This document shows positions 836 to 64,000 of a stretch of 64,000 bases of DNA, in pieces; within the stretch, counting starts at the first letter, position 1, and each line of letters opens with the position of its first letter. Both the position numbers and the translations under genes were made by a program. The stretch comes from Candidatus Wallbacteria bacterium (GTDB lineage Bacteria; Muiribacteriota; UBA9980). The stretch lies in assembly GCA_022703765.1 (NCBI GenBank), contig JAKJHQ010000001.1:145854-209853 (forward strand), written 5' to 3'. The notes beneath the pieces are model-generated. The model ran no database searches and had not been told where the DNA came from. It saw nothing but the letters and a program-made list of their open reading frames with translations.

Positions 836-1124
836 TTTTGATAAGGGAAGGCCAGGGGCCAAAGGCCCCTGCCTTCCCTTAAAATCCCTTCCAACCCCTG
901 AATCGCCTGATGCTTTATTAATGTGAAGTGCCGGCTTTTCTGACTGCGTTTTAATGTTTTAATGCTTAAATTCAGTTATGCAGTTATGCTCTTTTCATAA
1001 ATTGCTTCAAATTTCTTTTTTACATTGTTTTCGTCTTTATTTTTCTTGAGATTTTTTCAAGTTTTTTTTCGAGTTCGCAGACGCGCGCACGCGCGCGTCT
1101 GCGCAGCAATAATGGCTTATTGGT
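836..1124 (+). repeat. Intergenic repeat element, copy 1 (~290 bp): GC-rich hairpin, conserved ~100-nt module, variable T-rich core, terminal palindrome GCAGACGCGCGC..GCGCGCGTCTGC
   Basis: Near-identical ends and similar internal layout to 24056-24343 and 63952-64000. Hairpin at 845-878 and palindrome at 1077-1102 were read directly from the sequence. Confidence 0.7.
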
Positions 1125-1617: not shown

Positions 1618-1646
1618 TTGACATTGACATTTTTGTGTGTTATAAT
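1618..1646 (+). promoter_or_regulatory. Consensus sigma70-type promoter upstream of brnT (TTGACA, 17-bp spacer, TATAAT)
   Basis: TTGACA at 1618-1623 and TATAAT at 1641-1646 sit immediately upstream of the brnT ATG at 1653. Confidence 0.5.
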
Positions 1647-1652
1647 AAAATC

Positions 1653-1925
1653 ATGGATTTAAATGTATTAAACTTTGAATGGGATCAAGGCAATATTGAT
1701 AAAAACATTGTCAAGCACGATCTTTATCCGCTTGAAATCGAAGAAGCATTCTTTAATAAACCGCAGAAAACATTGAAAGGACGCGACGATAGATATTACC
1801 TCTTTGGAAAAACCGACGCCGGAAGATATTTATTTATCGTGTTTATAATTAAAGAGAAAACGATTAGAGTAATTTCAGCCCGTAACATGACTAAAGAAGA
1901 AAAAAGGCAATATCTTAAAAAATAA
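1653..1925 (+). CDS. brnT: BrnT-family (DUF497) toxin of a type II toxin-antitoxin pair
   Basis: The product MDLNVLNFEWDQGNIDKNIVKHDL... has the characteristic FEWD..N..KN..KHG start of BrnT/DUF497 toxins. The track's start at 1635 is GTG, so I moved it to ATG 1653. Confidence 0.75.
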   Translation: MDLNVLNFEWDQGNIDKNIVKHDLYPLEIEEAFFNKPQKTLKGRDDRYYLFGKTDAGRYLFIVFIIKEKTIRVISARNMTKEEKRQYLKK

Positions 1926-1983
1926 CTAAACTAACGCAAACAAGCAATATTAACAACGAAAATTATTAATTCAGGTGATAAAA

Positions 1984-2268
1984 ATGAAAAGCAAAAAAAA
2001 ATTACCAAACTTTAAAAATATGACCGAGCATGAAGAACAAGAATTTTGGGATAAAAATTCTATAATTGATTACGCCGATGAAGTAAAAGAAATTGATTTA
2101 AATTACATAGATCAAAGGCCTCTAAAAAAAACTACTATTAATTTAAGAATTGACGAAAGTTTAAAAAATCAAATCAAAAAAATCGCATTAAAAAAAGGCT
2201 TGCCATATCAAACTTTGATTTATATGTGGCTTAAAGAACACATCGACAATGAAGGAAAAGCCGCTTAA
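1984..2268 (+). CDS. brnA: BrnA-family antitoxin (ribbon-helix-helix/CopG-like C-terminus)
   Basis: This small ORF lies directly downstream of brnT. Its C-terminal RIDESLKNQIKKIALKKGLPYQTLIYMWLKEHI matches the RHH antitoxin pattern. The start was moved to ATG 1984, with AGGTGA 5 bp upstream. Confidence 0.7.
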   Translation: MKSKKKLPNFKNMTEHEEQEFWDKNSIIDYADEVKEIDLNYIDQRPLKKTTINLRIDESLKNQIKKIALKKGLPYQTLIYMWLKEHIDNEGKAA

Positions 2269-2692
2269 TAAACTCTTTCACACAGTTTAAGCGACAACTA
2301 GTAGATCCCGTGATCTCGACTCGGTTACACTCAGGATCAAGAACGCAGCTTTCATAATATCCGTCACCGGTCATTCGTGGCTCCGAAACGACACGAAAAC
2401 CTGCCGAACGCAGCCTTTCTGTCAAAGCGTCCACGCAACCGCGACTTCCAGCCGAAATTGCAATATGTGCAAGACCCGAACGAAGACCACGGTCAATATC
2501 GACACATTTTGCAATTCCGGGTTTTTGCATTAGTTCGAGACGCATCTCACCATCGAAAACCAGAAAATATGATTCAAAGCCTGTTTTCGGATTCAAATAT
2601 TTTTCGCCGGCCGAACAATCAAAATATTCGATATAAAAATCTTTCAATTTTTCAATATTTTCGGACCATATGGCGATATGAACGATCTGCAT
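2231..2692 (-). CDS. VOC/glyoxalase-bleomycin resistance family protein
   Basis: A ~125-aa N-terminal region has the VOC-like pattern (IVHIAIWSENIEKLKDFY...; HIAISAG...). The 3' end overlaps the brnA stop, and the C-terminal tail may be non-native. Confidence 0.55.
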   Translation of the reverse strand: MQIVHIAIWSENIEKLKDFYIEYFDCSAGEKYLNPKTGFESYFLVFDGEMRLELMQKPGIAKCVDIDRGLRSGLAHIAISAGSRGCVDALTERLRSAGFRVVSEPRMTGDGYYESCVLDPECNRVEITGSTSCRLNCVKEFIKRLFLHCRCVL

Positions 2693-2895
2693 TTCAACGC
2701 TCCATTTTTTTATAAATCTTTAAAAAGGTTTACAACGTTATGAAAAAAAGATTATTTACTTACCCTAATCGAGAAATAACCTTAACCATTATTTTATTCA
2801 TATCGATTATAAAATATGTCTGATTAAAAAAGAAGAATTATTTCAAGCATTTTCTTTCAGGGCCATCCATGGCCGGCTACAAAGATCCAATAGTT

Positions 2896-4035
2896 TTAAT
2901 CGCTGAATAACTGCAGGTAATCATTATAAACATAAATTTTATTCCTTTTTCTTTCCACGAACAATTTTAAAATACCAAGATCAATAAATTTATCAATCAT
3001 CTTTTTGGCGTTTGGATAAGTTAAATCAAGCATATTACATACATCACCCACCGCAACAGTTGGTTTGTTAAACAAATTATTATAGAGTTTTATTGCATTT
3101 TCGCTAATTCTTAAAAGCGATTGAACTTTTACCGTGTGAGTTTCTCTAAGTTCTTTTATTTTTCTTGCTTTATTAACCGCTTCTTTAGACATCTCAATTA
3201 TTCCCTCTAAAAAGAATTTGATCCATCTTTCAAAATCACCGCTTACAGTTATGTTATTCAAATATTCATAATACTGTTTTCTATGCTTTTTAAAAAACTT
3301 CGAAATATACATCGTCGGCTTACTTAAAATTCCTTTATGCGCCAGATAAAAATTTATTAATAGTCTTCCAATTCTTCCGTTCCCATCTAAAAATGGATGA
3401 ATTATTTCAAACTGTGAATGAATCAAAGCCGTTTTTATCAATGGATGCGTTTTATCATCAGCATGTAAAAACTTTTCAAAATTATCCAATAATCCATTCA
3501 AATATTGCGGCGCCGGCGGAATATAACTGGCCGTGTTTATCGAATGACCGCCGATCCAATTCTGAGATTTTCTAAATTCGCCAGGACATTTATGCTGCCC
3601 TCTGACATCTTTCAATAAAATCGAATGTATTTCCCTGATCAACCTTAAAGATAACGGCAATTTTTCAAGCCTTTTAAGTCCATATTCAAGAGCATTTATA
3701 TAATTTTCAATCTCTTTAACATCATCCGGAAGTTCATCATTAATTCCAGCTTCCTTCTTAATTAAATCCGAAAATGTCGCTTGCGTGCCTTCAATTTGAG
3801 ATGACAGCGTTGCTTCTTGACGCGCATACATATAAACAAAAAAATTGGGTGCAATCAATATGTCGGTAATTTCATCCAATCTACCTATAAATCTATTAGC
3901 TTCTGATACCAAATATATCAATTCATCATCATAATTCAAAGGTGGACTGGGAGGCAAAAAATTTGGAACGAATGATTTATAAGCACTATCACTTATGCCT
4001 TCCATTATAAACTTTCCCGCTCTATTATTCTTCAT
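2896..4035 (-). CDS. Fic/DOC family protein (AMPylator-type) with C-terminal winged-HTH-like region
   Basis: Canonical Fic motif HPFLDGNGRIGRLL is present. The protein is 379 aa. Confidence 0.85.
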   Translation of the reverse strand: MKNNRAGKFIMEGISDSAYKSFVPNFLPPSPPLNYDDELIYLVSEANRFIGRLDEITDILIAPNFFVYMYARQEATLSSQIEGTQATFSDLIKKEAGINDELPDDVKEIENYINALEYGLKRLEKLPLSLRLIREIHSILLKDVRGQHKCPGEFRKSQNWIGGHSINTASYIPPAPQYLNGLLDNFEKFLHADDKTHPLIKTALIHSQFEIIHPFLDGNGRIGRLLINFYLAHKGILSKPTMYISKFFKKHRKQYYEYLNNITVSGDFERWIKFFLEGIIEMSKEAVNKARKIKELRETHTVKVQSLLRISENAIKLYNNLFNKPTVAVGDVCNMLDLTYPNAKKMIDKFIDLGILKLFVERKRNKIYVYNDYLQLFSD

Positions 4036-7211: not shown

Positions 7212-7732
7212 TTTATCTTCCTCCCGAAACTTTATGACGCCGTGGTTGAATATTAAGCAACAATATTATAAACATTGTATCAAATATACAGCTAAAGTCA
7301 ACAAAATTTAAATTTATTTACGCCTCCGTCGTAATGTACTCTGGGCAAGTAAATACGGTAATCGATGAAAAAATTGCCGGTATGCCGAAAAACCAAAATT
7401 ACCATAAAATAATCATTATGTCTTGGAACCCTCGGGCGCGGTAACTAAATATAACAAAAACAAATTTTCAGGGGTGATTGCAAAAAATAAACCGATAACC
7501 TCGAAACAAAACAAAATATATCTTGATTTTTTCATAAAAATTGGTTTATGATTTACCTAAACAAAATATTTCCCATTACAAAGCGCCAGGCAAATTCTGG
7601 TTTTGAAAGGATTTTAAGAGAATATATGACCCGCGGCAATCGCCTGCCCTTATACAAAAAAATATTGTAATTTTAACGATCTTATGATAGAATAATTAAA
7701 GCTAAATAAAATTAAAGGAGAGCAAAATCCGC

Positions 7733-24055: not shown

Positions 24056-24343
24056 TGTTTTTTGATAAGGGAAGGCAAGGGACCAAAGGCCCCTTCCTTC
24101 CCTTAAAATCCCTTCCAACCCCAAATCAGCCTGACGCTTTATTAATGTGAAGTGCCGGCTTTTCTGCCGGATCTTTAATTCTGCTATGCTTTTTTCTTAA
24201 ATCGCTACAAATTCTTTTTTGATTATCCTTTATTTTCCTTAACTGCCAAAATTTCTTTTCGCTTTGTTTTTCTGTTTTTTGTTTCTGTTTTTTGCAGACG
24301 CGCGCTTACGCTCGCGTCTGCGCTGCAATAATGGCTTGCTGGT
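24056..24343 (+). repeat. Intergenic repeat element, copy 2
   Basis: Hairpin at 24069-24102 and palindrome at 24295-24321. It is collinear with copy 1. Confidence 0.7.
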
Positions 24344-24394
24344 TAGTTAACTTAAGGGTTTTATATTTACTTTTCGGTTAATCAACTTTTATTT

Positions 24395-24592
24395 AATTTG
24401 CTTTTAAGCTTGTAGCAGGGGCCAGACAAAATTTTTGAGGAGCGTTGCGGAGGCCCTGGAGCCCAGGGAGGGGCGAGAAGGGCCGAGCACGAGCGGCAAA
24501 AATCCCGGAGGGATTTTTGAACGAGTCTCCGAAAAAACTTGTCTGGTACCCTGCCCAAAACTACCAGCTAAAATACAAAAGTTCTTGTTTAA
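24395..24592. ncRNA. Candidate structured ncRNA, unit A of a tandem pair (strand undetermined)
   Basis: Long-range closing helix GCAGGGGCCAGACAA...TTGTCTGGTACCCTGC and an internal perfect hairpin AAAATCCCGGAGGGATTTT. The flanks are conserved with unit B. Confidence 0.4.
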
Positions 24593-24642: not shown

Positions 24643-24894
24643 AATTGTTTTTAAGCTTTTAGCAGGGGCCAGAATAATTTTTGAAGGGGTGTAGCGGAAT
24701 CGCCGGAGCCCAGGGATGGGCGAGATCGGGGCACGGATGCCCTAATGCAGCACGCGCCATGGACGGCAACGGCGTGCTGCGGCGCTGAGCTCAAGCGGCT
24801 AAAATCCCGGAGGGATTTTAGAACGCGTCCCCTAAAAAAATTATCTGGCGCCCTGCCCAAACTACTAGCTAAAATGCAAAAGAACCTGTTTTAA
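24643..24894. ncRNA. Candidate structured ncRNA, unit B, a paralogue of unit A with an inserted ~55-nt helix
   Basis: Same closing helix, with compensatory differences (GCAGGGGCCAGAATAA...TTATCTGGCGCCCTGC), and the same internal hairpin. The extra hairpin is GCAGCACGC..GCGTGCTGC. Confidence 0.4.
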
Positions 24895-25151
24895 GTTTTA
24901 ATAATGGTCATATAAAATTTTAAGAGCTGATACATGAAGCGTTTTAATTTATATAAAGCTCGCTGGGCGAGCCCCAGCCTTAACTATTCACTATCCACTC
25001 TGCACTATTCACTGATAAATTTCCCGAAAGAACCTGTTTTAAGTTTTAATAATGAAAATAAAACAATAATTTAACTCGTAAATTTTAATTGAAATTAAAG
25101 ATAATTCAAAGTATAATATACTGATTAATTTTATAAAATTTCGGAGGCGCA

Positions 25152-49073: not shown

Positions 49074-49601
49074 CTATGCAGCCTGTCCTTCTTCCATTTT
49101 CTTCGCGTGCTGCGCGAGGACCTGAACGAGACCTCTCGATCCGGCCGAAAGAACGGTAACGATACCGCGGGCAGGAGACTGCAATACCGACAGGAACATG
49201 GAGCGCAATTGCGGCATAGCCGGAATGCTGCGCATAACCGTGAGCTGTTCGGCATCGTAAATTTCACCGTTGATAACGCCGGCTTTTAAAGGTATTTTTT
49301 TAATTTTTTCAAATTCGTGCAATACTTTCAAAGGCGCTATCGGATCGCCATAAGCTATAGCTATAGCGGTCGTGCCGGTCATGTGTTTTTCGATCGCCGC
49401 AAATCCGAATTCGGAGATGGCGATACGCGCGAGATTGTTTTTGAATATGCGATATTCGACTTTTTCGGCTCTGAGCTTGCGGCGGAGAGCTGAAATGTCT
49501 TTAACTGTGACGCCTTTAAAGTCCGTTAAAATAAATCCCTGCGCCTGACCCAGTTTTTCTTTGATCAATTTAACTTTTTGCTCTTTTTGTGGTGTTGGCA
49601 T
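49074..49601 (-). CDS. rplJ: 50S ribosomal protein L10
   Basis: MPTPQKEQKVKLIKEKL... with AAGGAGGTG RBS. The start was moved to ATG 49601. Confidence 0.9.
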   Translation of the reverse strand: MPTPQKEQKVKLIKEKLGQAQGFILTDFKGVTVKDISALRRKLRAEKVEYRIFKNNLARIAISEFGFAAIEKHMTGTTAIAIAYGDPIAPLKVLHEFEKIKKIPLKAGVINGEIYDAEQLTVMRSIPAMPQLRSMFLSVLQSPARGIVTVLSAGSRGLVQVLAQHAKKMEEGQAA

Positions 49602-49613
49602 TAATGTGTACAC

Positions 49614-49950
49614 CTCCTTTAGATTTTATTTATTCCGATTTATGGATAACTTGGTTTTTTGCATACGCTTTTGTTTTAAGAGGCTTCCAAAGCGAGGTTA
49701 AAAAAACCCTGCGTTGAAGGCATTGGCATATCCGAAACAACACAGGGTTTTAATATCTTGAACAATCGCGCCGGCGGGCGGTTAAATAATCAAACGATCC
49801 GCAGGGCGTCATCCGCAAAATTTCTATGCTTGTTTCGGCCGGCCGCCGGTTTTTAAAAACCTGGCGATTAAAGGCTATGCCTGCCATGCTGTCTTTAACA
49901 AATTCTTATAAAAGAACCGCCCTTTTATAAGGGCATAATGTCTATATAAA
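49614..49950 (-). promoter_or_regulatory. rplJ (L10) leader region with attenuator-like hairpin
   Basis: A ~337-nt untranslated leader lies between rplA and rplJ. On the minus strand a 10-bp stem hairpin (plus-strand 49707-49747) is followed by a 7-T run. Confidence 0.45.
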
Positions 49951-50640
49951 TTAGTTTACCATCGAAGCGGGGTTGATACGGAGTCCGGGGCCCATCGTGG
50001 TAGCGATGGTAACGGTCTTTATGTACTGGCCCTTAGCGCCTGTAGGTTTAGCTCTCAATACGGCGTCGTAGAAAGCTCTGAAATTTTCATTTAATTTATT
50101 GTCGTCGAAAGACGATTTTCCGAAAGGTCCGTGGATTATACCGTTCTTTTCGGTTCTGAACTCGATACGGCCGGCTTTTAATTCTTTTACCGCTTTAGCG
50201 ATATCGAATGTAACGGTTCCGGTTTTCGGGTTCGGCATTAAGCCGCGGGGACCTAATATTTTACCGAGCTGACCGACGATTTTCATCATATCGGGCGTAG
50301 CTACCACGAAATCAAAATCGGTCCAGCTTTCTTTTTTGATTTTTTCGGCGTAATCGTCAGCGCCTACGTAATCTGCGCCGGCCTGTTCGGCTTCTTTGGC
50401 TTTTTCGCCTGCGGCGAAAACTAAAACTTTAACTTTTTTGCCCGTGCCGTGAGGAAGAACGACTGTGCTTCTAACCTGCTGATCGGCATGTTTCGGGTCA
50501 ACGCCAAGCTTGATGGCAATTTCGAATGAAGAGTCGAATTTGGTATAAGCGATTTCTTTAGCGAGCTTTATAGCGTCCTGAAAGTTATAAAGTTTGTTGG
50601 GTTCCACTTTTTTCAAAGCGGCTTCGAATTTTTTTCCCAT
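49951..50640 (-). CDS. rplA: 50S ribosomal protein L1
   Basis: [29 protein letters not shown]... Confidence 0.9.
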
Positions 50641-50726
50641 TTAAAATAAACCTCCTCGTGGTAATAGCGGATTAAATCCTTCCACAAATTGCGGCGCGTC
50701 AAAGCGCCATTGCAAAAGTTGCGTAA

Positions 50727-51155
50727 TTAATCTTCGATGACGTCGATGCCCATCGAGCGAGCGGTGCCGCCGATGATTTTCGCGCCCTGAACTTCGTCGT
50801 AAGCGTTAAGATCGTTGAGTTTTTTCTTGGCGATCTCTTTGAGCTTCGACATGGTAATTTTGCCGACTTTCGTTTTATTAGGAACGCCGGAACCTTTTTC
50901 GAGTTTTAAAGCTTCGCGCAATAAGATAGCCGCGGGCGGGGTTTTGCATATAAAATCGAAACTCTTGTCGGCGTAAACCGTAATAATAACCGGGATGATA
51001 GTTCCAGCCTGCGCCGAAGTGCGGGCGTTGAACTCTTTGCAGAATGCCATGATGTTAACGCCGTGCTGGCCGAGAGCGGGACCTACTGGAGGCGCAGGAT
51101 TCGCTTTGCCGGCGGGGCATTGCAGTTTAACATAAGCAACAACTTTTTTAGCCAT
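50727..51155 (-). CDS. rplK: 50S ribosomal protein L11
   Basis: [36 protein letters not shown]... Confidence 0.9.
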
Positions 51156-51214
51156 GATAATTCTCCTTCCGAGTGTGTGTTATATCTTTATTAAAACTAA
51201 ACGTGATTTAATAA

Positions 51215-51745
51215 TTAAGCTTCTTCTATCTGGGCGAAATCCAGTTCGACCGATGTGTCGCGCCCGAATATCTTGAGCATGATTTTAACAAGATGCTTTT
51301 CGGGGCTGATGCTGTCGATCGTGCCGTTGAAACCGGAGAACGGGCCTTCGATAACGCGGACTTTCTGGCCGACCTTAAACGTGATTTTATCTTCGGGCTT
51401 CTGTTCGCCGTAACCGAGAAGCTTCATGATGCCCTGAACGTCTTTTTCAGTGAGCGGGGTCGGCTTGTTTCCGAAACCGATAAATCCGGTAACGCCGGGC
51501 GTGTTGCGCACGACATACCATGAATCGTCGGTAAGTATCATTTCTACATAAATGTAGCCTGGATAAACTTTGCGCTCGATTTCAACGCGTTTGCCGTCTT
51601 TAATTTCAACGACTTTTTCTTTCGGAACGACAACCGTAAATATCTGGTCTTTCATACCCATGCTTTCAATACGCTGGCGTATGTTAGCCTTTACTTTGTC
51701 TTCCGACCCGGAATAAGTGTGAACAACGTACCAGGATCTTTCCAT
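51215..51745 (-). CDS. nusG: Transcription termination/antitermination factor NusG
   Basis: WYVVHTYSGSEDKV N-terminal NGN domain and a C-terminal KOW. The start was moved to ATG 51745. Confidence 0.9.
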   Translation of the reverse strand: MERSWYVVHTYSGSEDKVKANIRQRIESMGMKDQIFTVVVPKEKVVEIKDGKRVEIERKVYPGYIYVEMILTDDSWYVVRNTPGVTGFIGFGNKPTPLTEKDVQGIMKLLGYGEQKPEDKITFKVGQKVRVIEGPFSGFNGTIDSISPEKHLVKIMLKIFGRDTSVELDFAQIEEA

Positions 51746-51874
51746 ATAATATCGCACAAAAAGCTAAACTGAAAAATAATTAAAAGTCGCTTTCTGTTTA
51801 AAGCGGCACCCCATTTCCTATTAAAATAAACCCGCGCCGTAAACACCCCCGGGCGAGATCGGCGCTGAAAATAA

Positions 51875-52096
51875 CTATTTAACCTTTAATATCACTTCGA
51901 AAAGGCGGTTGAAAACCGTATCTACAACCGCTATATAAACGGATATCATCAATACCGAAACGACTACGGCTTTCGTTGAAGAATAAACGCCCTGCTTGTT
52001 GGGCCAGGAAACTTTTTTCATTTCAGCGGGAACTTCGATGCCAAGAAATTCTTTTAATCTCGCGTATCCGCCTTTTATTGATTCGCTTAAACTCAT
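51875..52096 (-). CDS. secE: Preprotein translocase subunit SecE
   Basis: 73-aa product with a single C-terminal transmembrane helix, positioned between nusG and tRNA-Trp. Confidence 0.8.
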   Translation of the reverse strand: MSLSESIKGGYARLKEFLGIEVPAEMKKVSWPNKQGVYSSTKAVVVSVLMISVYIAVVDTVFNRLFEVILKVK

Positions 52097-52151
52097 TGTT
52101 ACAATTCACCACCAAATAAATTCTTTTTATCTTATGTTTAAAAACCTGAAA

Positions 52152-52222
52152 CAGGGCCAGACGGATTCGAACCGCCATCAACGGTTTTGGAGACCGCTAT
52201 TCTACCATTGAACTATAGCCCT
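52152..52222 (-). tRNA. tRNA-Trp (anticodon CCA)
   Basis: Manual fold of AGGGCTATAGTTCAATGGTAGAATAGCGGTCTCCAAAACCGT..., giving anticodon loop CTCCAAA. CCA is not encoded. Confidence 0.85.
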
Positions 52223-52331
52223 AACATTGCAATAACAAACGCTGAACCTAATCAAGAGCGCGACGCCGCCGGCTTAAATTGCACTATCAAACCGTCTTGC
52301 GCCGCCGCAAAGTAGCCGCCAGACGGCAATG

Positions 52332-52481
52332 CTATTTAGCTTCTTTGTGTTCGGTGTGCTTGCGATCGTATTTGCAGTATTTGTTCAACACAAGGCGATC
52401 CGTCGTCTTGCGTTTGTTTTTTGTTGTCGAATATGTCCTGTTTTTGCAGGTGGTGCATTCGAGTGTAATAATTTCGCGCAT
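52332..52481 (-). CDS. rpmG: 50S ribosomal protein L33
   Basis: [49 protein letters not shown]. It is not in the ORF track because it is under 60 aa. Confidence 0.8.
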
Positions 52482-52636
52482 GATAACTCTCCTGTCTTAA
52501 CTTTTTAGTTTAATATAAACCGTATTTTTAGTTTGCTTAAGCCTGAAACGACATTTCTCTGCCGCTTCAGGCTTAATTTAATAACATCTGTTAATTATAT
52601 CACACTAATCAGCTTGTTGTCAAGCTTTTTTTAAAA

Positions 52637-53842
52637 TTAGTCGATAACTTCTGAAACGATGCCTGCGCCTACGGTTCTGCCGCCTTCGCGGATAGCGAAG
52701 CGAAGCTCTTTTTCCATAGCGATAGGCATAATGAGTTCTACGCCGATCGATACGTTATCGCCGGGCATAATCATTTCTGCGCCTTCAGGAAGTTCGATCG
52801 AGCCGGTTACGTCGGTCGTTCTGAAATAGAACTGGGGTCTGTAGCCTTTGAAGAACGGCGTATGACGGCCGCCTTCTTCTTTGGACAGTATGTAAACCTG
52901 GGCCCTGAATTTCGTGTGCGGTTTGATCGAACCGGGTTTTGCGAGAACCTGGCCGCGTTCGATGGCTTCTTTATCTACGCCGCGCAGAAGCAGACCTACG
53001 TTGTCGCCGGCCTGGCCTTCGTCGAGGAGTTTTCTGAACATTTCTACGCCCGTAACAACCGTTTTCGAGCTTTTTTCTTTGAGGCCGATAAGTTCGACTT
53101 CTTCGCCGACTTTTACTATGCCGCGTTCGATTCTGCCGGTTGCGACCGTGCCGCGGCCGGTTATCGAGAACACGTCTTCGACGGGCATTAAGAACGGTTT
53201 ATCTACTTCACGGGCGGGAAGCGGGATATAAGCGTCTACCGCGTCCATGAGCTCGTATATTCTCTTGCACCAGTCGCTTTCGTAATCGTTAGCCGTGGCG
53301 GCTTCCATAGCTTTGAGAGCGGAGCCGCGGATTATCGGTATTTCGGAGCCGGGGAATTCGTATTTGGAGAGAAGGTCGCGGACTTCGAGTTCTACCAGGT
53401 CTAACAATTCGCTGTCGTCAACCATGTCTACTTTGTTGAGGAACACTACTATTCTCGGAACGCCGACCTGGCGGGCGAGAAGGATGTGTTCACGGGTCTG
53501 GGGCATCGGGCCGTCGGCTGCCGATACTACCAGGATGGCGCCGTCCATCTGTGCCGCGCCGGTGATCATGTTTTTGATGTAATCCGCGTGGCCCGGGCAA
53601 TCAACGTGTGCGTAGTGGCGGGTTTTGGTCTGGTATTCAACGTGAGCGATAGCTATCGTGATACCGCGTTCGCGCGATTCAGGCGCTTTATCGATATCGT
53701 AGAAGTCTTTCGCTTCGGCGAAACCGATGTGCGAGAGAACTTTCGTTATAGCTGAAGTCAGCGTGGTTTTACCATGATCAACGTGTCCGATCGTGCCTAT
53801 GTTAAGATGCGGCTTATTTCTTTCGAATTTTTCTTTTGCCAT
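52637..53842 (-). CDS. tuf: Elongation factor Tu
   Basis: [29 protein letters not shown]... in a 401-aa product. Confidence 0.95.
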
Positions 53843-53907
53843 TTTAAATTGCCCTCCTTAATTTAACGGAAAATTACTTAAAAATTAAACTGTTACCTAT
53901 GATAAAA

Positions 53908-53980
53908 AGCCCACCATCGGTATTGAACCGATCACCTTATCCTTACCAAGGATACGCTCTACCATCTGAGCTAGGTGGGC
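53908..53980 (-). tRNA. tRNA-Thr (anticodon GGU)
   Basis: Manual fold, anticodon loop TTGGTAA. Confidence 0.85.
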
Positions 53981-53994
53981 TTAAGGTTAGAATA

Positions 53995-54078
53995 TGGTGG
54001 GAGAAGGATTTGAACCTTCGAAGACCGGAGGTCGACGGATTTACAGTCCGTTCCCTTTGACCACTTGGGAATCCCACC
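53995..54078 (-). tRNA. tRNA-Tyr (anticodon GUA), long variable arm
   Basis: Manual fold, anticodon loop CTGTAAA, class II variable arm. Confidence 0.85.
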
Positions 54079-54093
54079 TGAATCTCTTTTTAA

Positions 54094-54166
54094 AGCCGAC
54101 AATGGGACTCGAACCCTCAACCCCCGCATTACAAGTGCGGTGCTCTACCAATTGAGCTATGTCGGC
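54094..54166 (-). tRNA. tRNA-Thr (anticodon UGU)
   Basis: Manual fold, anticodon loop CTTGTAA. Confidence 0.85.
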
Positions 54167-63951: not shown

Positions 63952-64000
63952 TTTTTTGATAAGGGAAGGCGAGGTGCCAAAGGCCCCTCCCTTCCCTTAA
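63952..64000 (+). repeat. Intergenic repeat element, copy 3 (left end only, truncated by the window)
   Basis: TTTTTTGATAAGGGAAGGCGAGGTGCCAAAGGCCCCTCCCTTCCCTTAA is collinear with the left ends of copies 1 and 2. Confidence 0.6.

Follow-up and report, generated by a model that had tools for sequence, protein, structure and literature searches.

Structured repeats that lie between genes, among them REP/BIME, BOX and REPIN, have been described from a few well-studied phyla, and how they are maintained is debated. For REP/BIME elements, processing in single-stranded form by a single-copy HUH/Y1 enzyme has been proposed, and BOX (Streptococcus pneumoniae), Correia (Neisseria) and bcr1 (Bacillus cereus group) are intergenic and modular, with lengths of 100-400 bp. 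REPIN-RAYT systems have been inherited vertically over very long periods (PMC3116915; bioRxiv 10.1101/2021.07.10.451892), and the lagging-strand template is the target of IS200/IS605 transposition, which biases the orientation of these elements in genomes (PMC5027513, PMC3333891). Here we describe a repeat family present in a stretch of 64,000 nucleotides from Candidatus Wallbacteria bacterium (GCA_022703765.1, contig JAKJHQ010000001.1, positions 145,854 to 209,853; hereafter the window, with positions counted from its first letter). The family consists of dispersed, structured, non-coding intergenic repeats, is restricted to one small clade of uncultured digester bacteria and is new. The orientation of its copies follows replication and not the direction of nearby genes, and compensatory change has preserved both of its GC-rich hairpins. 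It comes closest to REP/BIME-RAYT and to IS200/IS605-derived elements, but is placed in neither group, since the defining features of both are partly absent from it.

A preliminary description of the window had listed three copies in the same orientation, as the least number in 64 kb, and had seen in them a discrete intergenic element without an open reading frame (ORF). Both statements are borne out. Three intact copies stand on the + strand of the window, and a profile search adds a fourth, decayed and truncated, at 7573-7659 on the - strand, which is the minority orientation. The 34-nt pattern of the first hairpin matches three times in the window and never in 100 shuffles, and a 31-nt conserved block matches twice where none is expected. 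The preliminary description had also proposed a genome-wide count: when an exact 23-mer from the unit was sought in 185,579 species genomes, all 94 matches fell in only two of them, 43 in ADurb.Bin243 and 51 in JPNA_metabat.86, both unclassified metagenome-assembled genomes (MAGs) from anaerobic digesters, which puts the family at no fewer than 43-51 copies per genome. A looser hairpin pattern brought in 97 further stretches from digester and activated-sludge metagenomes, mostly of the same clade; three of its matches (L120, L186 and L195) are unrelated hairpins that have only the lower stem in common with the family. Partial forms occur as well, namely hairpin 1 alone at two loci (L101, L139) and the tail alone at another (L076). 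The proposed Rfam scan returned nothing relevant, with only four tRNAs at the gathering score over the whole 64-kb window and nothing above noise at E<=10 over both full copies. Viral contigs contain no true copy, and the 3' module has no match among them; a viral origin was rejected, the one partial match, in a giant-virus bin, being due to chance. Many copies stand at contig ends, from which we conclude that the family breaks MAG assemblies.

The preliminary description had singled out one stem pair of hairpin 1 that reads C:G, A:T and G:C in the three copies, and this is exactly what the sequence holds (853/871, 24077/24095 and 63971/63989, respectively). Across 93 copies the pair is GC in 70, CG in 10, AU in five, UA in two, GU or UG in two and unpaired in three, and the observed number of double changes was reached in none of 500 shuffles. 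It is the top mutual-information pair among 114 distinct copies, and a second tally gives GC 86 times, CG 12 times, AT five times and TA four times, with five exceptions; wobble pairs number only three. The covariation of hairpin 1 is real. The hairpin itself, which lies at 845-878 (+) in copy 1 and reads GGGAAGG, a bulged C852, the pair C853:G871, an A:T pair, GGGGCC-AAA-GGCCCC and CCTTCCC, is imperfect: its structure stands as first described and its perfection does not, since next to the flagged pair the 5' arm carries the bulged C, and 89 of the 93 copies have exactly one mismatch among three consecutive G:C pairs. In every case a G of the 5' arm is replaced by T or A opposite a constant 3' arm, and the change falls on the three positions in 24, 19 and 48 copies; apart from these positions and the flagged pair, the stem is invariant. 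Copy 1 of the window is one of only two copies without a mismatch there. Two divergent metagenomic copies (L159 and L180) have compensated changes in the upper stem and retain both the bulged C and one 5'-arm mismatch. The position of the mismatch has no mutual information with the variable hexamer that lies farther downstream. On the + strand the mismatches are T.C in 80 cases, A.C in 19 and of purine or wobble kinds in three, and are therefore mostly G.A or G.T on the complement; the common mismatch of hairpin 2 has the same strand asymmetry, and folded as DNA the complement of hairpin 1 is predicted to be more stable by 1.0-1.8 kcal/mol in all three variants computed. Hairpin 2, a 12-bp stem at 1077-1102 (+) in copy 1 (GCAGACGCGCGC-AC-GCGCGCGTCTGC), is perfect in 55 of 75 independent copies; some variants have changed several bases with full compensation, as in CGGGCCGCGCGC/GCGCGCGGCCCG and GCAAAC../..GTTTGC. 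A third hairpin, considered in two registers, gains nothing over shuffles and has no covariation support.

To relate the copies to replication, each locus was read in the orientation of the element, with the element itself excluded, at independent loci of at least 5 kb. The flanks have a negative GC skew (C>G) at 59 of 71 such loci (p=1.3e-8). Since the skew is the same inside ORFs of either strand (means -0.039 and -0.044), it is of the replication type and not a by-product of gene direction. Every 4-kb bin of the window has C>G on the + strand, and coding sequence is split evenly between the strands (27.3 kb and 28.1 kb), with little overall gene-strand bias. Four tRNA genes followed by tuf, nusG, rplK, rplA and rplJ occupy 49077-54166, all on the - strand. 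Leading strands are generally G-rich and carry translation genes, and by this general rule the - strand is the leading strand in the window. The T-/C-rich strand of the element would thus be on the lagging strand and its G-/A-rich complement in the lagging-strand template, a strand left unpaired for a time as the fork passes. Neighbouring genes are arranged divergently at 17 loci, in tandem at 18 and 10 and convergently at eight, and all copies are intergenic; the idea that the element always sits in a promoter-proximal or operon-end position merely restates this. Copies in the minority orientation are not significantly more decayed.

The copies are old. About 20 have an orthologue at the same site in the other MAG, with flank identities of 78-99%, and at flank identities of 85-95%, 31-35% of positions differ in the free parts of the unit and in the intergenic DNA beside it, compared with 0-2% in the conserved blocks; some of these blocks were fixed by the search patterns, and the 3' module, GCCTGAC and GCTTTAT were not so fixed. 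It is from this difference that we conclude both that the copies are old and that specific positions have been held constant in each of them. Part of the seemingly repeated covariation is due to gene conversion, by which one hairpin top has been copied between loci: three non-orthologous loci in one MAG have an identical top, and their orthologues in the other MAG differ. The body type likewise follows the genome and not the locus at the DUF1232 locus and at a second one (L001 / L066 / L044 / L067), both JPNA_metabat.86 loci having one variant and the window genome and ADurb.Bin243 another, which indicates conversion or exchange between dispersed copies. A programmed hypervariation of the hairpin top was considered and rejected, as allelic pairs with flanks at least 99% identical have two differences in 1074 nt. 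The excess of divergence seen at 95-99% flank identity rests on seven pairs and is better explained by gene conversion.

The unit is longer than the ~290 bp first proposed. Its 5' part stands as described, but homology continues for ~70 nt past the earlier 3' end (to ~1170 in copy 1 and ~24387 in copy 2), giving a length of ~340 nt. It is a mosaic which, on the + strand, consists of an optional upstream module of ~55 nt, 5-9 consecutive T residues followed by GATAA, hairpin 1, the invariant TTAAAATCCCTTCCAACCCC, a hexamer free to vary, GCCTGACGCTTTAT, the weak third hairpin, a stretch of partial conservation, a spacer that is T-rich and microsatellite-like, hairpin 2, GC(A/T)GCAATAATGGC and one to four tail units of ~30 nt that contain GGTTAATCAACC, ending with GGTTAATCAAC. 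Copy 1 (833-1170, +) has its T-run at 833-839 and GATAA at 840-844, and hairpin 1 is followed by a conserved single-stranded block at 879-918 (TTAAAATCCCTTCCAACCCC, the variable hexamer at 899-904, and GCCTGA(T)GCTTTAT), by the weak hairpin 3 region at 919-950 (GTGAAGTGCCGGC TTTTCT G.C..GCGTTTTAAT, self-complementary in its consensus) and by the spacer at 951-1076, of which the first ~70 nt are semi-conserved and the remainder is microsatellite-like. Past hairpin 2 come the conserved GCAGCAATAATGGC and tail units of the types ..TGGTAA.TC.. and ..ATGGT.A..AAC (1103-1170); profile matches (nhmmer) place the 5' module at 834-955 and the 3' module at 1062-1176, both on the + strand. Copy 2 (24058-24387, +) begins 19 nt past the stop codon of an ABC permease gene, has hairpin 1 at 24069-24102 and hairpin 2 at 24294-24321, and its tail ends with GGTTAATCAAC. 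Copy 3 (63952-64000, +) is ended by the window edge after its T-run, GATAA and hairpin 1 (63963-63996); it lies 10 nt upstream of a DUF1232 gene on the - strand, and its full sequence comes from contig JAKQIG010000031 (L001), which has the same DUF1232 gene. The decayed fourth copy has an intact orthologue in JPNA_metabat.86 (L090:2775-3040) with a fully compensated hairpin 2, GGGCCGCGCGC..GCGCGCGGCCC.

The spacer, whose length varies between copies and between orthologues, sets the 5' and 3' modules anywhere from 121 to 382 nt apart (mode 154). In the spacers of one pair of orthologous copies (L006:1600-1720 and L051:5225-5290), a microsatellite-like TTTTTTTTGTTCTGTTCTG is expanded about four-fold in one MAG next to flanks that are 98.5% identical. 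The optional upstream module, GCTCTTTTTCATTTT(N6-7)GGTAAAATAAAATT(N4-8), stands ~55 nt 5' of the T-run at ~25 loci (for example L007, L039, L062, L088 and L097) and is common to non-orthologous copies whose flanks beyond it are unrelated; it contains a TAAAAT box without a consistent -35 element or a conserved ORF. In all copies an invariant C-tract block (866-898 in copy 1) reads CCCC T. CCTTCCC TTAAAAT CCC TT CC AA CCCC, so that its complement is, as read from the sequence, a canonical array of G-tracts which could form a G-quadruplex on that strand, and the single mismatch of hairpin 1 always breaks the G-run of the other arm. The second CCCTTCC, put forward in the preliminary description as an alternative partner of the 5' GGGAAGG arm, is invariant across copies, as is that arm. 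The conserved ATGCTCTTTTC would start a hydrophobic peptide, but coding potential was rejected because the frame closes after four codons in both copy 1 and copy 2 and the spacers do not come in multiples of three nucleotides. Neither strand has a promoter- or terminator-like site at a conserved position. A role as a promoter for the downstream gene was rejected too: each right-hand gene in the window has a near-perfect sigma-70 promoter to itself, located past the element (1618-1646 and 25089-25117).

At about half of the loci (among L005-L098 as well as in the window) the main unit is followed, in the same orientation and at set spacings of 101, 131, 160 and 191 nt, by a second element, the B repeat. 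It is 140 nt long and is predicted to fold into a three-way junction closed by a stem of ~27 bp; 10 of its 50 predicted pairs have compensatory double changes, and wobble is nearly absent. All but six of the 57 B matches in the loci lie no more than 1.2 kb downstream of a unit (51/57). In the window, a 140-nt B repeat lies at 24415-24554 (+), in tandem with a longer variant at 24662-24856 (+); such longer variants carry inserted hairpins. B has no match in Rfam. A third intergenic repeat, ..ATATAAAGCTCGCAGGGCGAGCC..AACTATTCACTATCCACTCTACACTATTCACT.., was seen at L082 and L088, in both downstream of the main repeat, and at L133:2860-3060, and it is missing from the site orthologous to L133 in L006 and L051.

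An intron-like sequence beginning GTGCGCCCGGCATGGGCG... starts directly after ...CCTTCCCTTAA, the end of hairpin 1, in two different copies. Its 5' end (GTGCGCCCGGCATGGGCGATAAC...) runs from position 102 down to 1 on the - strand of L127 and over L152:7702-7730, in both cases exactly past the hairpin. One of the two insertion loci is intact in L039. Both contigs end ~30-100 nt into the intron-like sequence, which suggests that the intron is multi-copy. In its GTGCG start and first 100 nt it resembles group IIC introns such as that of Oceanobacillus, and it is a putative intron of that type; Rfam gave no match for the 100-nt fragment, which is too short to score. Group IIC introns characteristically sit just past terminator motifs or other inverted repeats (PMC1702495). 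Insertion right after hairpin 1 indicates that an independent mobile element recognises this hairpin as a stem-loop. The family is also a homing site for this putative group IIC-type intron.

Copy 1 has rmlD (- strand, start near 691) on one side and the brnT promoter (1618-1646) on the other. By eye, the stretch 1635-4035 just downstream of this copy holds a brnT-like (DUF497-type) ORF and a brnA-like ORF with a perfect TTGACA-17-TATAAT promoter, followed on the other strand by a protein with a Fic motif (HPFxDGNGRxGR). Elsewhere in the window, a coding region contains a tandem repeat of 33 nt (11 codons) in four imperfect copies (46464-46661, +). Among clustered ORFs of at least 120 aa from the MAG loci, only ordinary host paralogues recur beside the element.

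How might such a unit act and spread? We lean, with less than even confidence, towards an element of the REP/BIME or IS200/IS605 kind that works as folded single-stranded DNA. The unit would be a mosaic, non-coding and non-autonomous intergenic repeat acting at the DNA level, and its two GC-rich hairpins would be recognition structures that form once the passing fork lays their strand open. Placed in the G>C strand, the purine-rich complement of the window + strand would be in the lagging-strand template, where it would carry the mild G.A and G.T mismatches and form the more stable hairpin. A trans-acting single-strand-specific enzyme, comparable to the HUH/Y1 nuclease-transposases that act on REP/BIME and on IS200/IS605-derived miniatures, may spread the units and would leave neither terminal inverted repeats nor target duplications. 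Occasional gene conversion together with selection on recognition sequences could then keep old, vertically inherited copies alike. We infer both the folding of single-stranded DNA at the fork and the kind of enzyme. What points to a hairpin acting as single-stranded DNA is the replication polarity, the independence from gene orientation and the near-pure Watson-Crick compensation, together with the mosaic make-up and the lack of promoter, terminator, ORF, terminal inverted repeat and target-site duplication. The strand asymmetry of the mismatches, the solo hairpin 1 and tail-only forms and the putative group IIC insertion exactly past hairpin 1 count in its favour as well.

Several observations weigh against this reading. 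Searches with tblastn (E<0.1) found no HUH/Y1 gene with IS200, IS608-like or RAYT queries, a weak test because they covered 1.3 Mb of sequence and not whole genomes. The ends of IS200/IS605 elements and REP pairs carry similar hairpins for one enzyme, whereas hairpins 1 (GGGAAGG..) and 2 (GCAGACGCGCGC..) have no sequence in common, and hairpin 2 lies ~85 nt from the 3' edge. An all-against-all comparison of 196 loci, orthologous and allelic, that looked for collinear alignments interrupted by element-sized gaps produced no clean empty site as evidence of mobility: such gaps turned out to hold other repeats or small genes, and in the single candidate pair (L020 against L076) the tail module is retained. 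At least 20 orthologous copies with blocks differing by no more than 2%, against 31-35% in their neighbours, fit a host-useful element as well as a selfish one. Finally, the direction of replication was itself deduced from GC skew and the tuf/ribosomal-protein cluster. It is the lack of an HUH/Y1 gene, the unlike hairpins, the lack of an empty site and the old, conserved copies that hold our confidence in a single-stranded DNA element at this level.

Several of the same results bear on whether the family acts instead as RNA. It could be a structured non-coding RNA family, or a set of RNA-level cis elements perhaps acting with B, with the hairpins as structures of the transcript and the C-rich block that never varies (CCCUUCC, CCCC) as a seed pairing with purine-rich ribosome-binding sites; were the G-rich strand the transcript, the orientation bias would be the co-orientation of highly expressed RNA genes with replication, and the tRNA and tuf genes do place highly expressed genes on the G>C strand. 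The compensatory changes in hairpins 1 and 2 and in all of B are what an RNA would show, and the + strand folds better than its shuffles (z = -5.6, compared with -3.0 for the complement), with a candidate third hairpin on that strand whose variable arm makes mostly G.U or A-U pairs with the invariant arm (86% of cells paired). However, this third helix is the one without gain over shuffles, wobble is nearly absent among the compensated pairs, and the better-folding strand would run head-on to replication if transcribed. Neither hairpin 1 nor hairpin 2 is followed by a U-tract in either direction, no promoter or terminator site is conserved, no Rfam family matches even at E=10, the spacer varies over ~120-380 nt by microsatellite slippage, and orientation is unlinked to neighbouring genes. 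The resemblance to a structured RNA noted in the preliminary description is not upheld by these results, and we regard an RNA family as unlikely. RNA-level modules of another sort, namely terminators, insulators or REP-like stabilisers of mRNA 3' ends dispersed by gene-end duplication, have in their favour that the unit begins 3-90 nt past the stop codon of a co-oriented left neighbour, as copy 2 does, that hairpin 3 with CTTTAATT is terminator-like in copy 2, and that the putative group IIC intron, of a type usually placed past terminator motifs (PMC1702495), sits directly after hairpin 1. Yet 57 of 88 left neighbours point away from the unit, and the T-runs are 5' of hairpins 1 and 2, neither of which a terminator scan picks up. 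Gene ends have not been duplicated either, as the outer flanks of non-orthologous copies are unrelated; the duplicated terminator or 3' untranslated region that the preliminary description had named as the alternative to a discrete element does not hold in view of the divergent, tandem and convergent sites and the sharp 5' edge. A terminator-like role is thus, in our judgement, very doubtful.

At the DNA level, the unit could be a host-serving chromosomal signal with replication polarity, read as a cruciform or hairpin, as a G-quadruplex or through its tail units as protein sites, which would serve replication restart or priming, or chromosome organisation or segregation, and would be kept by purifying selection at fixed intergenic sites. 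Such a signal would account for an orientation that tracks replication, for conserved orthologous positions and for specific blocks that stay invariant beside saturated bases, and both the G-tract array on the complement and the tail of one to four ~30-nt units with GGTTAATCAACC would suit it. Against it stand the length of the unit, as known polar chromosomal signals are short motifs and not 340-nt mosaics, the decay of some copies (7573-7659) or their partial absence from one species, and a distribution over only two of 185,579 species-level genomes, which is unusual for a core replication function; we know of no candidate binding protein. A host signal of this kind appears quite improbable. 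Least of all do we credit an ordinary miniature inverted-repeat transposable element (MITE), the deletion derivative of an insertion sequence with a DDE transposase, to which the preliminary description had likened the family. High copy number, intergenic location and a size of 300-400 bp are as in a MITE, and there is a weak 7-nt inverted match between the ends (TTGATAA ... TTAATCAA), but this is no usable terminal inverted repeat. Target-site duplications, which the preliminary description had suggested looking for, are no more frequent than in a flank-swapped control at any plausible boundary offset. No transposase lies beside or between the ends in 1.3 Mb, and no autonomous parent was found in which a gene, transposase-like or other, separates the 5' and 3' modules. 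Orientation linked to replication and ancient orthologous copies would also be atypical of a MITE.

A folded single-stranded DNA element, the reading we favour, can be set beside each described system in turn. With REP/BIME and REPIN the family has in common high copy number, a strictly intergenic and non-coding nature, long vertical inheritance at orthologous positions, GC-rich hairpins made imperfect by bulges or mismatches and showing compensation, mosaic modules joined by variable linkers, and the lack of terminal inverted repeats and target duplications. In contrast, those systems are built from 20-40-nt palindromes, single or in inverted pairs, whereas this unit of ~340 nt has two unrelated hairpins in fixed order and long conserved single-stranded blocks, and no inverted pairs of the same hairpin were seen. 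The conserved 5' GTAG-type tetranucleotide was not recognised in the unit, queries for RAYT, the single-copy gene that such repeats usually flank, matched nothing in 1.3 Mb, and no recurrent protein stands beside the copies. A strong replication polarity of REPs is not described in the literature passages searched. IS200/IS605 elements and PATEs also have hairpins near their ends in place of inverted repeats and make no target duplication, and IS200/IS605 elements are likewise oriented by replication, their active strand being that of the lagging-strand template (PMC5027513). The end hairpins of PATEs are, however, alike, one TnpA binding both, whereas those of the unit are dissimilar, with the second set well inside the 3' edge; neither TnpA, TnpB nor a parent insertion sequence was seen, the copies are ancient and conserved rather than recent, and no clean empty site among orthologous or allelic loci defines a fixed 4-5-nt target, immediately 3' of which IS200/IS605-derived miniatures insert; the conserved T-run and GAT at the 5' edge could belong either to the target or to the element. 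The attC sites of integrons resemble the unit as folded single-strand recombination sites whose identity lies in structure, extrahelical bases and a variable top and not in sequence, which group IIC introns target and whose strand choice is tied to replication. They differ in that the R''/R' core (RYYYAAC / GTTRRRY), sought by direct reading, is absent from the foot of hairpin 1, and in that the copies are dispersed, form no cassette arrays, have no integrase nearby and are far longer than attC. BOX, Correia and bcr1 have variable numbers of internal modules, stable predicted secondary structure and no coding function, like the unit, but carry terminal inverted repeats and/or target duplications (Correia, bcr1) or are not known to have replication polarity, and their sequences are unrelated to it. 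Rho-independent terminators differ in that hairpins 1 and 2 lack a 3' T-tract, only the weak hairpin 3 of copy 2 being flagged, and classic MITEs in their terminal inverted repeats and target-site duplications.

Whatever its mode of action, the family amounts to a natural experiment: in dozens of orthologous pairs the free positions are saturated and the recognition positions unchanged, the hairpin carries one mismatch at any of three positions on the same arm, and orientation is set by replication and not by transcription. It is conceivable, if doubtful, that these repeats are a second, independent population of long-lived, vertically inherited DNA hairpins comparable to REPIN-RAYT, with a larger two-hairpin unit, a one-mismatch rule and replication polarity. 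Were this so, structures in the lagging-strand template would be read by an undescribed single-strand DNA enzyme or by a host function at the fork. A partner enzyme, if there is one, would be a new structure-specific nuclease or recombinase of single-stranded DNA with a well-defined substrate; if there is none, the family would become a candidate host signal at the replication fork.

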